Assembly: GCA_963717465.1 (NCBI GenBank)
Contig: OY970340.1
Location: forward strand, 2,496,001-2,560,000
DNA from: Candidatus Bathyarchaeota archaeon
GTDB lineage: Archaea > Thermoproteota > Bathyarchaeia > Bathyarchaeales > Bathycorpusculaceae
DNA length: 64,000 bases
Reading direction: 5' to 3'
A model generated the notes under the pieces. That model saw only the letters and a program-made list of their open reading frames with translations, had not been told where the DNA came from and did not search any database. This document shows, piece by piece, positions 5,907 to 59,768 of this stretch (position 1 is the stretch's first letter; the number at the start of each line of letters is the position of its first letter). The translations under genes were made by a program, and so were the position numbers.

Positions 5907-5984
5907 TGGTGGGCCCGGCCGGATTTGAACCGGCGACCAACAGATTATGAGTCTGGCGCTCTGGCCTGACTGAGCTACGGGCCC
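5907..5984 (-). tRNA. tRNA with CAT anticodon, probably tRNA-Ile2 (agmatidine-modified)
   Basis: GGGCCCG TA GCTC AGTCAGGCCA GAGC G CCAGA CTCATAA TCTGT TGGTC GCCGG TTCAAAT CCGGC CGGGCCC A CCA. The GGGCCCG acceptor stem is typical of archaeal Ile rather than Met. CCA is encoded. Confidence 0.9.
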
Positions 5985-9037: not shown

Positions 9038-11164
9038 CTACTCCATGAATTTTTCAGGCGCTGGTACATCAGAAGAGAGGCCTTTACTTTTTCGCAAGTT
9101 ATTGATTATTTGCAATTCAAGTTTTTGCGGCATTGTATCCCAGTGATCAAAAAACATTTGCCAGAAAGCTCTCCCCGAAGTAGCTGACCTTAAGTCTGCG
9201 CTTAAACCAAAAGTTTCAGAAACAGGAATAAAACCGGATAAAACTGTTAGCATCCCCTTCTGCTCAAAAGACAACACTTTTCCGCGTCTTCTACTCATTA
9301 TTTTTGAACATTCTCCAGCTAATTCAGTTGTCACTGAAAGCACAATCTTGTAAATTGGCTCAAGCAAAACAGGCTTAGCAGTTAAAAAGGAGCCAAATAT
9401 TGCCTTGCCAACGCCGCGCATAACCTCCACAGAACCTCTCAATCCTTCATCATTGCTGACCTGCAAGTCAACCAGGCTCACCTTTACATGCCTAACAGGT
9501 TCACCGCATAATGGACCTGCATGACAAGCAAACTCAAAACCTGCGATAATAGATTCCAACACTTCTTCGCTTAACGATTCGGTAATACCTTTACTATCGA
9601 CAAGCACGTTACGTCTCTCATCAAACGATAAAATATTTCCGCCAGTCCCACCAGCCCGTTTTGTCGTTTTGGTTTGTTCTTCATCTTCAGGTTCAACTTG
9701 TATCCAGAAACTATTTTGTTTATTGGGGCTTTTAGCGTGGGCAACAACACCTTTGCTTCTGACACTTTCACGGTAAACAACTTTTGGCGAAGAAGCCACA
9801 ACATCAACTCGGAATTCGCTTTTTAACTGGTTAATAGCGATCTCCAAATGCAACTCGCCCATGCCGCTAAGCAGATATTCACCTGTTTCTCGGTTCACCG
9901 TAACAGCTAAGTTAGGATCTGCAGCGGACAAGTTTTCCATTCCGCCGAGCAAAACCTCCAAATTTTTAGGATTTTTAGGCTCAACTGCCATGGTAACTAC
10001 AGGCTCCGAAACGTAGCTTATGCCTTCAAAAGGAACCATTCCTGATTTATGATCTAAATCAACAAGAGTCTCCCCAGCCTTCACGCAACCCGACAAAGTC
10101 AAAACCACCAAATTGCCAGCTGAAACCCCAGCAACCTCTTCCCGGAAAGATCCCATATTAATCGCGACTTGATTCACCGTTGCCTCCGCTATTGCATCGA
10201 CAAGATGCAAAACATTTCCTTTCTTTACTTTCCCACAGAATAATCTGCCCAGCGCAAGACAGCCACCGTTTGAATCCGACTGCACGTTTGTTACACACAT
10301 GACTGTTGGGTCTTCATCCTGGCATGCAGTTAAGGCGTGACCAATTTCCGAGTCAACGTTTCCATCCCAAATTTTTGGTATTCTATAAGCTTGAGCTTCA
10401 CGTGGATCCGGAAGGCTCTTGATAGCGATTTCGAAGACCGCATCGTAAACAGGAAGCAGACTTTGCAGTTTAGTCTGCTGTGAATTCAAATAAGAGTTTA
10501 TTATATTTTCGAATTTGATGCTTTTCTCTTTTGCAATATTAGCGGTGAAGCCCCAACCGTGCAGCGCTGAACCATAAGCTACGTTGCTGTATGATGAGTC
10601 AATTTTCCACTTACTCTTAAAATCAGTTTCACAGTACAATTCGATAAGATCATTGAATCCGTTAACGATAAGTTTCAGTTTTTGTTTGATTTGCTGTTCA
10701 GTTAATTGCAATTCCGTGATTAACCGATCAACCTTATTTATGAATAATACTGGACGCACGCGTTCCTCAAGTGCTTGTCGCATGACAATTTCAGTTTGAG
10801 CCATGATTCCTTCGACTGCGTCAACAACAACTATAGCCCCATCAATAGCTCTTAGTGCACGTGTGACTTTACCAGTAAAATCCACATGTCCAGGCGTATC
10901 AACCAAATTTATTATGTGTTGATTGTAGAGTAATGTTATGTTTGCGGTTTTTATCGTGATTTTTCTTTTCTGCTCTTCCTCAAGATAATCTAGCACTCGT
11001 GCAGAACCAGCCATTTTAGGCGAAAGTAACCCCGCACCAGCCAATAATGAATCAGCAAGCGTTGTTTTTCCATGGTCAATGTGAGCGATTATTCCAACGT
11101 TTCGAATAGACTCTTTTTTATTCATTAATTGTTGAATTTGACTGATATGTCTAAACCTTGGCAT
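9038..11164 (-). CDS. Elongation factor 2 paralog (aEF-2p-like)
   Basis: AHIDHGKTT, DTPGHVDF, NKVD, GMGELHLE, KSPNK and LRSATSG motifs. The diphthamide loop is altered (SNDEGLRGSVE). Likely start is MPRFRH at 11164. Confidence 0.9.
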   Translation of the reverse strand: MPRFRHISQIQQLMNKKESIRNVGIIAHIDHGKTTLADSLLAGAGLLSPKMAGSARVLDYLEEEQKRKITIKTANITLLYNQHIINLVDTPGHVDFTGKVTRALRAIDGAIVVVDAVEGIMAQTEIVMRQALEERVRPVLFINKVDRLITELQLTEQQIKQKLKLIVNGFNDLIELYCETDFKSKWKIDSSYSNVAYGSALHGWGFTANIAKEKSIKFENIINSYLNSQQTKLQSLLPVYDAVFEIAIKSLPDPREAQAYRIPKIWDGNVDSEIGHALTACQDEDPTVMCVTNVQSDSNGGCLALGRLFCGKVKKGNVLHLVDAIAEATVNQVAINMGSFREEVAGVSAGNLVVLTLSGCVKAGETLVDLDHKSGMVPFEGISYVSEPVVTMAVEPKNPKNLEVLLGGMENLSAADPNLAVTVNRETGEYLLSGMGELHLEIAINQLKSEFRVDVVASSPKVVYRESVRSKGVVAHAKSPNKQNSFWIQVEPEDEEQTKTTKRAGGTGGNILSFDERRNVLVDSKGITESLSEEVLESIIAGFEFACHAGPLCGEPVRHVKVSLVDLQVSNDEGLRGSVEVMRGVGKAIFGSFLTAKPVLLEPIYKIVLSVTTELAGECSKIMSRRRGKVLSFEQKGMLTVLSGFIPVSETFGLSADLRSATSGRAFWQMFFDHWDTMPQKLELQIINNLRKSKGLSSDVPAPEKFME

Positions 11165-24427: not shown

Positions 24428-25510
24428 TTAATCGGAAACTGCTTTTGACCAAACTCGGCAAGTGCCTTCACTGCTGACCATGCAAGCACCGATTGGTTTA
24501 GCAGGCGTACATGCCTTCATGAACATTGGGCACTCAGTAGGCTTAATCTTTCCAATAATTACCAAGTGGCATTCGCATCCAAGCAAAATGTCTTTACCCT
24601 GTTCCACCCGGACACCGAATTTTTCCCGTGCATCCAAAGCTTTTAGCTCTTCACGCAGTACAAGTGCGGAATCGGGCAATCGGCCAATTCCACGCCAATT
24701 GCCACTTGTAACTCTGAATGCTTTGTTCATCACGTCCAAAGCTTTCGTGTTTCCTTCCCATTTGACGACACGGGGATACTCGTTCTCTAATTTTGCCGTT
24801 TTCTCGTTGACTTGTTTAACAATCATGTAAATTGCCATTAACACGTCATTAGGTTCAAAACCAGCCACCACAGTAGGCATACGATAAACCCGTGGAAACA
24901 ATTCATAAGGCTTCAACCCAATAACCATACTCACGTGACCAGGCGCAATAAACCCATCAATCTGAAGGTCGCCGACACCGAGCAAAAGCTCCATAGCAGG
25001 AGGAATCAGCCGATGCGAAACCAGAAAACAAAAGTTTTTAGGCGGATTCGCAAGTGCTTCAACCGCTGTGGATGGAGCAGTCGTTTCAAAGCCAACCGCG
25101 AAGAACGCGAACTGCTTCTGGGGTTCTTTTCTTGCCATTTCAACCGCGTCAGAAACGGCGTAAACGATTCGTACGTCTGCACCGTTTGCTTTTGCCTGCA
25201 AGAGGGAAGATTCGCTTCCAGGCACTCTTAGAACGTCTCCAAAACAGGTTACTACAACGCCTTTCTGCGCTAATTGTATTGCTTCGTCAACTTCGGATGC
25301 GGGCACGATGCAGACTGGGCAGCCTGGACCTGCAATTACTTCAACATTTTCAGGTAGAAGACTGCGCAGTCCATAGTGAGTAACAGTCCACTCATGTGTT
25401 CCACAAACATGACAAATCTTGATTTTGCCTTTCGTAGGCGCCAAACTTTTGATTTTCGATGCAATATTGTGTGCTATTTCTGGGTCTCGGAACTTGAGTT
25501 TTTCAGTCAC
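24428..25510 (-). CDS. hypD: Hydrogenase maturation protein HypD
   Basis: HVCGTH, GPGCPVC, GFETTAP, PGHVS, CMVSSEGTC. Confidence 0.96.
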   Translation of the reverse strand: MTEKLKFRDPEIAHNIASKIKSLAPTKGKIKICHVCGTHEWTVTHYGLRSLLPENVEVIAGPGCPVCIVPASEVDEAIQLAQKGVVVTCFGDVLRVPGSESSLLQAKANGADVRIVYAVSDAVEMARKEPQKQFAFFAVGFETTAPSTAVEALANPPKNFCFLVSHRLIPPAMELLLGVGDLQIDGFIAPGHVSMVIGLKPYELFPRVYRMPTVVAGFEPNDVLMAIYMIVKQVNEKTAKLENEYPRVVKWEGNTKALDVMNKAFRVTSGNWRGIGRLPDSALVLREELKALDAREKFGVRVEQGKDILLGCECHLVIIGKIKPTECPMFMKACTPAKPIGACMVSSEGTCRVWSKAVSD

Positions 25511-25816: not shown

Positions 25817-28103
25817 TTATGAAAATCCACCTACAACTGCCTGCCCAAACGAAACTCCGCCATCACCAGCAGGCACAGCTTCATGAACCACAAACTTTAG
25901 GCCCGATTTTTTAACTGTTTCTCGCATGATTTCAGACAGGATCTGGTTGGCTGCTGTACCACCGGAAAACCCAACCGTTGAAACATGTTGCTCAACGGCA
26001 TTATCAACAGCTAATGAAGCTAAACCTTTGGCTAAGTAAGCATGAGCGCTATAAGCTAAGTCTCGCGTTGAAATCTTGTCTTTGTTTTCAAATATTTCGG
26101 CAATTAAGGGTGTTGTGTCCAAAATGTTTTGGTGCAGTTTAGGTTGAACGTGCAAGAGGTTTTTTCCACCTATTGCTGCCGACTCAAGTTTCATAGCTGG
26201 TTCTCCTTCAAAAGTGCGCATGTAGCATAAGCCTAAGACTGCGGCAACCGCATCTAAAACTCGGCCACAACTCGTTGTTTCAATCTGCCCTGAACTTTTT
26301 GTCAACTGTTTTTGTATGAGCTGTGCCTCTTCTTTTCCGAATTGTAAATGATGACTGTTTTGCATGAGCCAGGATTCAATGTTATATCCGGCTTTACTTA
26401 GTATTCCAGCCGCTATGCGAAGAGGGTAACGGCTTGCTATGTCACCGCCGAGAAGCAGTTGAGGCTCTAAATGTCCAATCCGCTTAAATTTTGCTGATTG
26501 GCTCGTGCTGAGAAGGACTTCGCCTCCCCACGCTTTGCCATCGAGACCATACCCGTAACCATCGCAGACTATGCTTACAAGTTCATCTAACGAATGCTCT
26601 GCCATTAGGGCTGCGGCGTGAGCGTGATGATGCTGTACTTGAATCAGACTTAAGTCGTTTGCTTCTGACAGTTCCTGGGCTAAAGCTGTTGTAGTGAATT
26701 TTGGATGCAAATCGCATGCGTAAACTTGCGGGTGGCAATTGGTTAAACGTGCGAGGTGACCAGCTGCTTCTTGAAGAAAAACTCGTGTTTCCACGTTTTC
26801 TACGTCGCCGATGTGTTGGCTTATGAATGCTTTGTCATCGAGGAGGAGGCAAATGGTGTTGTTGAGTTCTGCCGCCTAAGCCTATGACGCAACGTTTTGA
26901 TGTTGTTTTTCAGTTTTATTGGTGCTGGCGCGTATCCTCGGCTTCGCCTAATGAAAGCTTGGCGTTTTCCGTGAACTCGAATGACGGAGTCGTCGCACCT
27001 GTATGCTATTTTGCGGTTATGAAACAAAAAGTAATCCACGGTTGTTCCAAGTGTTTTTAGGGCTTCCTCATTGTCCTTTACGATTGGCTGGTTAGGCGGG
27101 TTCGCGCTTGTGAGTACAAACGCTGGGTCATCTACAGCGTCAAAAAGCATGTAATGCAATCCAGTGTAGGGCAACATGACGCCGACGTTATGAAGATTCG
27201 GTGACACTAGCTCTGAAAGGTTGTAGCGGGAATTCTTGTTAAGCAGCACTATTGGGTGTGCTGGAGAAGTTAGCAGTTCCTGTTCCTTCGAGTTTACTTC
27301 GGCGAAGCGTTTGGCGGCAGGTAAGCTTTTCGCCATTAGGGCAAAGGGTTTTTCGTTTCTATGCTTCGTTTTCCGAAGTGCCATTAAAGGTTCATCTTTG
27401 ATGGCAGAGGAGCCAATGTGGAAGCCCCCGTAACCTTTTACGGCAAGGATATTGCCTTCTGAAAGCAGTTTTCCCGCTTCACGCACAGGATCTGCTGAAT
27501 CAATGTGCTCGCCTGTTTTTGTTGTTAAGTAAGACTTTTGGACCGCAAGCGGGGCAAGCTATGGTTTGCGCGTGAAACCGCCTGTTGCTTGGGTCAGTGT
27601 ATTCTTTTTTGCAGTAGCCGCACATGGGAAATTCATGCATGGTTGTGTTTTCGCGGTCGTACGGTAAACTGTTCAATGATTGTAAATCGTGGACCGCAAT
27701 TAGTGCATGTAATGAAAAAGTAATTGTAACGTGGGTCTTTTGGGTCTCGCAGCTCTCTTAGGCAATCGTTGCAGATTGCGATGTCTGGAGGTATGATTGA
27801 GCCTGAAAGCTCCGCCTCGTTTGAACTGTGGTGAATCGTGAATGTTTCATGCTGGTTTTCTCCAGAAAGCTCAACACTGTTGACCTTGTCTATTTGAGCT
27901 AAAGGCGGCTTCTTGTCCGTTAAGTCGTGCATAAAATTCTTCGCGTTCTGCGGTTTGCCTTCGATTAGGATTTCAACGCCTGCATCGCCTTTGTTAAGGA
28001 CATAACCCGTTAAATCATAGGCTTTAGCTAAGCGATAAACAAAAGGGCGAAAACCAACGCCTTGAACAATCCCATTAACGCTAATTTTAACCCGCAAAGA
28101 CAA
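25817..28103 (-). pseudogene. hypF: Carbamoyltransferase HypF, frameshifted (pseudogene or sequencing errors)
   Basis: [47 protein letters not shown] and GDGGVSFGQ lie in different frames. About four +1 shifts, near 27665, 27535, 26905 and 26870. Confidence 0.9.
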
Positions 28104-28757: not shown

Positions 28758-28850
28758 GCATTTGTTTACACCATGCTTAAAAAATTTAATGCCACTAGCA
28801 AAGAAAAAGGATTTAGCATGACTTTTGATGGGGGGTAGCAGAGGCTCGAA

Positions 28851-29015
28851 TGGTGCCGTTCGTCCAAACAGACGCTAATTCTGCTTGTGGGACGGGATTC
28901 GAGCCCGCGACCTCTGGCTTTAGGCGTTTAGCCCCTTTAGTCTCCAGATTTCTCATCTGGGTTTGTCCTACCAGATTATGAGTCTGGCGCCCTGGCCAGG
29001 CTAGGCTACCCCGGC
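28851..29015 (-). tRNA. Elongator tRNA-Met(CAT) with three introns (28950-28976, 28912-28941, 28859-28888)
   Basis: Removing the three BHB-flanked inserts gives GCCGGGG TA GCCT AGCCTGGCCA GGGC G CCAGA CTCATAA TCTGG AGGTC GCGGG CTCGAAT CCCGT CCCCGGC A CCA, a complete cloverleaf. Confidence 0.9.
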
Positions 29016-29277
29016 AATGTTGGTTTGACCCCGATTTTGCCTTGAGACGTCTTTTTAGTTTGTAGCCTTTGATTTAAACTTTTAAACTGTTTTCAGCAAG
29101 TTGCTTGATTGATCCCTTTTTTAAAAAAGTGTGTCACAACTGTCTTTAGTATAATATGTCAGCAGTTATCTTATGATTAGTCGACCCATTTTGATTCTTT
29201 TGGCAAATCCATAATTTCTTATTTTGTCGCCCATTAATTATTCTTTAACTATCATTCTGCAGCTTAGAACAGCGAAA

Positions 29278-58847: not shown

Positions 58848-58924
58848 TGGAGCCTCGGGCGGGATTTGGACCCGCGACCATTACCTTACCAAGGTAACGC
58901 CCCACCGGGCTAGGCTACCGAGGC
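58848..58924 (-). tRNA. tRNA-Thr(GGT), copy 1
   Basis: GCCTCGG TA GCCT AGCCCGGTG GGGC G TTACC TTGGTAA GGTAA TGGTC GCGGG TCCAAAT CCCGC CCGAGGC T CCA. Confidence 0.92.
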
Positions 58925-59447: not shown

Positions 59448-59524
59448 TGGAGCCTCGGGCGGGATTTGGACCCGCGACCATTACCTTACCAAGGTAACGC
59501 CCCACCGGGCTAGGCTACCGAGGC
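59448..59524 (-). tRNA. tRNA-Thr(GGT), copy 2
   Basis: Identical to copy 1. Confidence 0.92.
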
Positions 59525-59680: not shown

Positions 59681-59768
59681 GCAGGGGTCTCCAAGTCTGG
59701 TCAAAGGAGTAGGGCTTAGGACCCTATCGCGCAGGCGTTCGTGGGTTCAAATCCCACCCTCTGCACCA
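59681..59768 (+). tRNA. tRNA-Leu(TAG)
   Basis: GCAGGGG...TAGGG CTTAGGA CCCTA, long variable arm, GTGGG TTCAAAT CCCAC CCTCTGC A CCA. Confidence 0.95.

Follow-up and report, generated by a model that had tools for sequence, protein, structure and literature searches.

The gene at positions 29015..28851 on the minus strand of the window (the whole 64,000-nt stretch of DNA that was analysed, G000:C1:2496001-2560000) very probably encodes a functional elongator tRNA-Met(CAU), probably the sole one of a Bathyarchaeia genome that consists of a single 3.05 Mb contig with 40% G+C, and is interrupted by three protein-spliced introns. Exon 1 (28977..29015, on the minus strand like all features of the gene) is 39 nt long, ends in CTCATA and comprises the 5' strands of the acceptor and anticodon stems, the D-arm, and the anticodon loop as far as position 37. 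It is followed by the 27-nt intron 1 (28950..28976), which sits at the canonical 37/38 position, and by exon 2 (28942..28949), an 8-nt micro-exon, ATCTGGAG, that supplies positions 38-45. The 30-nt intron 2 (28912..28941) lies at 45/46, and the 23-nt exon 3 (28889..28911) covers positions 46-68, that is the T-arm and three acceptor bases. Intron 3 (28859..28888), also of 30 nt, interrupts the 3' strand of the acceptor stem at 68/69 and leaves a last exon (28851..28858), CGGCACCA, with positions 69-72, the discriminator A73 and an encoded CCA.

A preliminary description of this DNA had proposed one tRNA-Met gene of four exons with bulge-helix-bulge (BHB) introns at 37/38, 45/46 and 68/69. Its exons of 39, 8, 23 and 8 nt and its introns of 27, 30 and 30 nt on the minus strand are borne out to the base, and the gene model as a whole is supported by sequence, structural and comparative evidence. 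When the exons are joined by their coordinates, ARAGORN reports tRNA-Met(cat) [1,78], in agreement with the complete 78-nt cloverleaf that had been claimed. The acceptor stem of the spliced 78-mer has seven pairs and its variable loop five bases; D-arm and T-arm are both present, the anticodon stem is CCAGA:TCTGG, and A73 is followed by the encoded CCA. The D-loop carries two extra bases, so that the linear positions 39, 47 and 70 correspond to 37/38, 45/46 and 68/69 in standard numbering. Position 54 of the T-loop (28897-28899 region) is C54 instead of the usual T54, which is unusual for a tRNA yet conserved among the orthologs, with C in 81 of 106 distinct sequences.

Upstream of the gene lies a putative BRE/TATA promoter element, TTTAAAAGTTTAAAT (29072..29086, minus strand), that ends 57 nt before the mature 5' end. 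Its GTTTAAAT core is present about 57 nt before the gene in all ten upstream regions compared (this genome and nine relatives) while the flanking bases vary, and the sequence suggests that this core is part of the promoter. The first downstream T-run, CCTTTTTCTTTG (28798..28809, minus strand), was read directly from the sequence and may serve as a transcription stop.

Splice motifs and intron patterns of the orthologs

Each motif was scored by the pairs formed in its 4-bp central helix, its inner helix and its outer helix, with the cuts placed after the second base of each 3-nt bulge. Intron 1 scores 4/5/5 (central helix CTCA:TGAG, inner helix of 5 bp and an outer helix of 5 bp that is the anticodon stem), intron 2 scores 4/2/0 (CTGG:CCAG, inner helix of 2 bp, outer helix of 0) and intron 3 scores 4/8/2 (CGTC:GACG, inner helix of 8 bp, outer helix of 2 bp); all three motifs are exactly as first written down in the preliminary description. 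Two 3-nt bulges flank a fully paired (4/4) central helix in all three introns at the boundaries that give the cloverleaf. Introns 1 and 3 fit the strict hBHBh' form, the latter with an added 10-bp helix to the 3' trailer. Intron 2 departs from the strict form, with an outer helix of 0 bp here that is formed in 0 of 86 distinct orthologous genes, and judged by its sequence the motif is relaxed and BHL-like.

Shifted boundaries that give an identical product form just 1-3 of the 4 central pairs. A 4/4 central helix is common by itself, with 193 such pairs in the 165 nt of the gene, so that intron 2 (4/2/0) is unconvincing when taken alone and no better than many chance candidates at the locus; its assignment rests on the comparative data. 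In a SPLITS-like control all sets of up to three BHB-like excisions were enumerated and the products were passed to ARAGORN. The 305 excision sets at the locus gave 8 tRNA calls, and the set given in the preliminary description ranked first. The same procedure applied to 400 random genomic windows yielded 400,239 products and no tRNA call.

The interruptions might nevertheless have been misparsed. A single excision of 57 nt in place of intron 1, exon 2 and intron 2 gives a product identical to that of the three-intron parse, since the start of intron 1 and the end of intron 2 both resemble exon 2, and the second-ranked excision set, a 46-nt excision combined with intron 3, leaves an 89-nt product that also passes ARAGORN. 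Either of these parses is hardly credible, as the 57-nt boundaries form only 1-2 of the 4 central pairs, the 89-nt product occurs in no ortholog, and each of introns 1 and 2 is seen in relatives that lack the other, precisely at its predicted site. Overall, the relatives are the strongest support for the gene model.

Orthologs were collected by a search of 40 relatives (30 loci) and by exact match to a 20-nt piece of exon 1 (at least 120 records). The first 20 nt of exon 1 are found unchanged in many Bathyarchaeia records, and among the matches listed most are titled Candidatus Bathyarchaeota or Bathyarchaeia MAGs. From the 152 loci gathered, 125 scored above 90 when aligned to the spliced reference; the 27 that were dropped include two EndA loci and Halococcus and Thermococcus records, and one further locus was skipped for a run of N. 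The final set, drawn from among the matches listed, comprises 124 loci that represent 106 distinct gene sequences. Intron patterns were read from a motif-constrained alignment in which gaps were allowed at BHB-like sites only. It replaced a motif-free spliced alignment in which the whole stretch from intron 1 to intron 2, micro-exon included, appeared as one gap.

The 45/46 intron occurs alone in 71 of the 106 distinct genes, together with the 37/38 intron in 9, with a 59/60 intron in 3, with the 68/69 intron in 3, with a 30/31 intron in 1 and with introns at 20/21 and 59/60 in 1. The 37/38 intron is the only one in 7 genes and is joined by a 59/60 intron in 1, a 30/31 intron stands alone in 1, no introns are present in 2, and the motif filter failed at 45/46 in 5. 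The full combination of 37/38, 45/46 and 68/69 is confined to 2 genes, those of the present genome and of its closest relative, G016. The locus L073 holds a third gene with three introns, in its case near 20/21, 45/46 and 59/60, so that three-intron genes number 3 of the 106. A survey of the relatives for 68/69 introns, which the preliminary description had envisaged, locates them in 5 of the 106 distinct orthologs, while exons 3 and 4 are contiguous in the other 101; these five amount to no more than two or three independent lineages.

Each of the predicted exon junctions can be found as continuous DNA in at least one relative. The junctions between exons 1 and 2 and between exons 3 and 4 are uninterrupted in most orthologs, and that between exons 2 and 3 is uninterrupted in orthologs that have only the 37/38 intron, for example L028. 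Within the genus (the present genome and 24 others) the 37/38 intron is present in 4, the 68/69 intron in 2 and the 45/46 intron in 24 intact genes. Taken over all orthologs, the 45/46 intron is nearly universal in Bathyarchaeia, old and consistently of the relaxed motif type, and the 37/38 intron is sporadic.

Covariation at the 45/46 intron was assessed in 86 distinct genes in which the intron was placed by motif-free alignment. The central helix is fully paired in 82 of these. The first inner pair is formed in all 86 (GC 32, AT 22, TA 16, CG 15 and GT 1) compared to 16-46 in slid controls, and the second in 82, compared to 6-40 in slid controls, with 4-5 pair types at the inner pairs overall; these counts come from related, non-independent sequences. 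Intron 3 has the central helix CGTC:GACG in the present gene, CGCT:GGCG in G016 and CGCC:GGCG in the other three genes. Between the first two a compensatory change has turned a T-A into a C-G pair of the central helix, and the first inner pair is likewise exchanged, being C-G in the present gene and G-C in G016.

Some further features of the introns were noted. At the locus L102 the 45/46 site has an insertion of 54 nt in which the 3' end of intron 1 and the start of exon 2 are copied (CCAGATGAGAAATCTGG). A small GG[GC]C...GC[GC]C hairpin core, a loose pattern, is present in 55 of 86 introns at 45/46 (28912-28941 and its orthologs) and may reflect shared ancestry or a bound element. Similar intron copies were not found elsewhere in the genome, where the five own-genome matches listed are the locus itself, the Ile2-like tRNA described below and one 21-nt match (E = 0.44).

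Identity of the spliced tRNA and its detection by gene finders

Initiator tRNAs are marked by A1:U72 and by three G:C pairs at the base of the anticodon stem. Both marks are found in the initiator tRNA-Met at G000:C1:1027777-1027853 (A1:U72, GGG/CCC in the anticodon stem) and are lacking in the spliced gene, which combines a CAU anticodon and A73 with G1:C72 and the anticodon stem given above. The genome contains 48 tRNA genes according to ARAGORN and 44 over threshold according to Rfam. Besides the spliced gene, the only tRNAs with a CAU anticodon that these searches find in the whole genome are the initiator and a separate gene at 5907..5984 (minus strand), which also has G1:C72 and is probably tRNA-Ile2. 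TiaS is encoded in the genome, and thus one of the CAU tRNAs must be tRNA-Ile2. Since G1:C72 and CAU are common to both genes, the assignment might be turned around, with the spliced gene as the tRNA-Ile2, its CAU modified to agmatidine, and 5907..5984 as the elongator tRNA-Met. This is quite improbable, given that the gene at 5907..5984 agrees with tRNA-Ile(GAU) at 64 of 78 positions, down to an identical T-arm, and resembles it in the acceptor stem, against agreement at 53 of 78 positions for the spliced tRNA; 5907..5984 is most likely the tRNA-Ile2. For the elongator tRNA-Met itself, a search of the whole genome for another gene by ARAGORN, Rfam and blastn-short found none, with no second copy of the spliced sequence by blastn-short, and the interrupted gene is probably the genome's only candidate.

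The preliminary description had expected standard scanners to miss the gene, which holds for ARAGORN and not for Rfam. ARAGORN reports no tRNA gene in the unspliced locus. The Rfam tRNA model calls it at 28889-29011, barely over threshold (30.9 bits, threshold 29) and truncated to model positions 5-66, with the introns treated as one long insertion. tRNAscan-SE 2.0, in the portion of its description available, performs an iterative search for noncanonical introns with a 60 nt flank by default in archaeal mode (PMC8450103). Where an ARAGORN annotation silently lacks this gene, probably the sole elongator tRNA-Met, estimates of completeness and inferences on codon usage for such genomes can be distorted.

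The Rfam score of just 30.9 bits is also what might be expected of a pseudogene, a decaying tRNA riddled with insertions, in which case another gene, not found, would decode methionine; that hidden genes exist is evident from the lack of any Asp or Phe tRNA call by ARAGORN or Rfam genome-wide. Decay is very improbable, however, for a gene whose exons hardly differ from those of some 100 orthologs, whose splice motifs show compensatory changes in all three insertions and whose promoter box is conserved. A second copy was not found in the genome, and the closest relative, G016, retains the same three introns. A functional gene with spliced introns is the reading followed here.

Genome-wide removal of one strict motif at a time produced 174,178 candidates and 19 junction-spanning ARAGORN calls, all of them at already called loci and none for a tRNA-Asp. 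A tRNA-Phe appeared only as a low-ranked alternative solution in the enumeration of excision sets, which gave ambiguous solutions for most other long tRNA loci. A genome filter for introns beside the T-loop ahead of NCCA returned 25 candidates, among which by eye only intron 3 resembles a tRNA 3' end. Other interrupted tRNAs are mislabelled by ARAGORN, at G000:C1:1400464-1400608, about 1403533-1403640, 2904636-2904789 and 2316394-2316504. These loci include, by eye, a tRNA-Arg(CCU) and a tRNA-Leu(UAA) with D-arm interruptions, as well as a tRNA-Tyr(GUA) with two introns in the best solution and a tRNA-Gly(GCC) with a 33-nt intron near 30/31.

Splicing enzymes and the 3' trailer

The PF01974 profile matches two ORFs of the genome, EndA paralogs of 184 aa and 143 aa. 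The 184-aa protein has its best matches in the tRNA-splicing endonuclease chains 2cv8_A, 3p1z_B, 3ajv_B and 2zyz_B, which are taken here to be crenarchaeal catalytic subunits, and it keeps a Tyr, a His and a Lys that are presumably the catalytic residues. Its sequence SKPK aligns with EKPR of 3p1z_B, which corresponds to Lys44/Arg46 of the Crenarchaea-specific loop in the Aeropyrum pernix enzyme. The best match of the 143-aa protein is 1a79_A, with a Thr in place of that chain's His in KEHSVY. The two paralogs look like a catalytic (184-aa) and a structural (143-aa) subunit, to judge from these alignments, and RtcB is encoded by one copy in the genome.

According to the available part of its description, the Crenarchaea-specific loop of A. 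pernix EndA (Lys44, Arg46) allows the enzyme to cut relaxed BHL motifs as well as introns that lie at nonstandard positions (PMC3241643). The present locus resembles that (alpha-beta)2 EndA and its BHL introns, as far as the same source describes them, in having in intron 2 a motif without outer helix and in the genome a catalytic paralog with Lys at the positions of Lys44 and Arg46 (PMC3241643).

The CTGG of exon 2 takes part in the motif of intron 1, whose outer helix is the anticodon stem, and also in that of intron 2; as CTGG is common to both, the two motifs are mutually exclusive and the introns would have to be cut in sequence. For intron 3 the central helix is built with C63-C66 and the outer helix with C61-C62, so that neither T-stem nor acceptor stem can form alongside this motif. 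The precursor of 165 nt shows none of the three motifs in its global minimum-energy fold, with gaps of 0.5-6.8 kcal/mol. A derivation of the splicing order from these folding energies was rejected as no consistent order emerges.

The 3' trailer contributes a further helix. The segment TTCGAGCCT (28842..28850, minus strand) pairs together with A76 to GGGCTCGAAT (28906-28897), giving a helix of 10 bp between the T-arm 5' strand plus T-loop and ATTCGAGCCT (A76 and trailer); the trailer stretch TTCGAGCC has GGCTCGAA as its counterpart on the T-arm side. This helix is present in both the minimum-energy and the centroid fold of the whole precursor. A 75-nt module (28911..28837) folds into a hairpin that this helix closes, at -29.6 kcal/mol with a z-score of -3.28, and only 1 of 200 shuffles is as stable; the minimum-energy fold of the module is a slid register, with the exact BHB register 1.2 kcal/mol higher.

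In all five genes that carry the 68/69 intron the trailer is complementary to the T-arm 5' strand, in two registers and with helices of 8-11 bp, compared to 7 of 99 genes without this intron that reach an 8-bp helix. The duplex energy between T-arm and trailer is -16.5 kcal/mol in the present gene and between -15.9 and -23.3 kcal/mol in the five, which are the five best of 104, against a mean of -7.0 (sd 3.1) and a best value of -15.3 in the other 99. In L075, L146 and L030 the minimum-energy fold itself displays the BHB, and in all five genes the first TTTT lies at least 45 nt past the discriminator. This pairing of trailer and T-arm in every 68/69-bearing gene, as predicted from the sequences, is what is new here. 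The locus L092 has the trailer of the present genome and G016 (CTCGAGCCTTTGCTACCCC...), which is found in only 3 of 124 loci, and no 68/69 intron, so that the trailer alone is insufficient evidence of a helper role.

A course of maturation may be inferred from these features. Transcription would start from the conserved TATA-like box and yield a precursor that includes a leader and a trailer of about 15 nt or more. An endonuclease of the (alpha-beta)2 type with the Crenarchaea-specific loop would cut after the second base of every 3-nt bulge, and after cleavage RtcB would join the exons. Introns 1 and 2 would be cut one after the other, both motifs needing the CTGG of the micro-exon. The motif of intron 3, made of the T-stem bases 63-65 and base 66, lies in a predicted hairpin closed by the helix between T-arm 5' strand and trailer; the T-arm and the acceptor stem would form only once intron 3 has been removed, and end-trimming should follow.

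It is tentatively proposed, as a model that is possible though rather doubtful, that the 68/69 intron is spliced only from the alternative fold clamped by the trailer, in which a co-evolved trailer paired to the T-arm 5' strand holds the T-arm and the acceptor stem unfolded and presents the splice motif, and that this requirement together with the exclusive motifs of introns 1 and 2 around the micro-exon fixes the order of maturation, with splicing before end-trimming. If the model holds, the trailer clamp would be a conformational checkpoint in an essential tRNA that recurs in Bathyarchaeia. With the ortholog record, in vitro work can directly address whether splicing or end-processing comes first. 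Nine metatranscriptome runs each hold 0.06 of the sampled words, and the four that were examined gave 5 contig pieces, which stem from relatives. These span either exon 1 or the region between the start of intron 2 and exon 3, continue into unlike sequence and contain no joints, and they are uninformative for the present gene.

Known tRNA introns, integration and neighbouring genes

Multi-intron tRNA genes and acceptor-stem introns are already published, and the present gene is a clean example of both. Reviews and related papers state, in the passages available, that archaeal tRNA genes have up to three introns and that the most interrupted are mostly from Thermoproteales (PMC4033280, PMC4090602, PMC3218864, PMC3293823, PMC8450103), and that noncanonical intron positions include the acceptor stem (PMC12397907; 3/4 in PMC4090602). 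The preliminary remark that triple-intron tRNAs are rare and best known from Thermoproteales agrees with such reviews (PMC4033280, PMC4090602) but has to be qualified by the available text of a 2026 preprint, in which Asgard archaea have up to five intervening sequences per tRNA gene (bioRxiv 10.64898/2026.10.13.758758).

A close parallel in gene layout is offered by the three-intron tRNAs of Thermoproteales, which as far as these sources show combine one canonical with two noncanonical BHB-type introns per gene, as does the present one; Pyrobaculum islandicum tRNA-Pro(UGG), for example, has introns at 25/26, 37/38 and 56/57 (PMC4090602, PMC4033280). Their hosts are said to possess an (alpha-beta)2 EndA that is cited in the same passages for its broad substrate specificity (PMC4090602, PMC4033280). 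The present gene differs in coming from Bathyarchaeia and in the noncanonical positions 45/46 and 68/69, and whereas intron families are reported for Thermoproteales in the text available, no similar intron copies were found in the present genome. Asgard tRNA genes are alike in having numerous noncanonical intervening sequences whose boundaries form BHBs, with some overlooked by annotation; unlike here, according to the available preprint text, the intervening sequences concentrate in the D-arm with few acceptor-stem cases (bioRxiv 10.64898/2026.10.13.758758). Bathyarchaeia has 0 occurrences in that text. The literature search found no paper on tRNA introns of Bathyarchaeia (a keyword match was PMC7714728; supplementary tables lie outside such a search) and none for 68/69 tRNA introns with bulge-helix-bulge, a notation that may escape text search.

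The known workings of archaeal tRNA introns are unchanged by the present gene, which adds Bathyarchaeia, an abundant uncultured lineage of sediment and soil, to the archaea with heavily interrupted tRNA genes. Its roughly 100 orthologs record the gain and loss of the 37/38 and 68/69 introns, one route of loss through replacement of the 3' half by an apparent integrating element in G019, and a trailer tied to an acceptor-stem intron.

For Caldiarchaeum subterraneum a tRNA-Thr(GGU) with introns at 24/25 and 45/46 is described together with a mobile-element model of intron gain, in the part of the source available (PMC3293823). The likeness extends to the 45/46 intron and to tRNA genes as integration targets (PMC3293823), for which the element in the tRNA-Met of G019 may be compared; the difference is that the 45/46 intron of Bathyarchaeia is old and nearly universal in the class.

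The G019 element is seen at the locus L153 (G019:C15:20500-33000), in a genome of the same genus. Here tRNA-Met is a hybrid (about 1212-1290) of its 5' part and a foreign 3' half that has no intron, and is adjoined by a tyrosine-integrase ORF (PF00589, PF16795; about 1405-2262), and the displaced original 3' part with introns at 45/46 and 59/60 lies about 9.7 kb away (about 10934-11033). A 16-nt core in the anticodon arm, CAGACTCATAATCTGG, is common to the hybrid and the displaced copy. From its sequence this arrangement looks like an integrated element and hence one route of intron loss. The preliminary description had suggested that an acceptor-stem intron would disrupt the 3' half that integrases commonly target. 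In this sole integration seen in the genus the crossover falls in the anticodon arm, the place of intron 1, and outside the acceptor stem. A displaced uninterrupted tRNA 3' end as a sign of integration has 0 matches within the window, and no direct link was found between integration and the gain of intron 1 or 3.

Elsewhere in the genome two weak partial tRNA matches (G000:C1:625421-625480 and 626185-626249) have a Leu(GAG)-like core without the 5' acceptor strand. They lie 0.7-1.5 kb from the intact tRNA-Leu(GAG) at 626912-626999 and may be integration remnants. Among the neighbours of the gene within the window, hypF extends over three ORFs at 25817-28103 on the minus strand, namely an acylphosphatase with zinc finger (27633-28103), a YrdC-like part (26821-27486) and a Kae1-like C-terminal part (25817-26794), and is adjoined by hypD at 24428-25510; this hypF may be broken or genuinely split. 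Two tRNA-Thr(GGU) genes (58848-58924 and 59448-59524, minus strand) with equal Rfam scores lie 600 nt apart beside a tRNA-Leu(UAG) at 59681-59768 and may represent a duplication or an attachment-site repeat.
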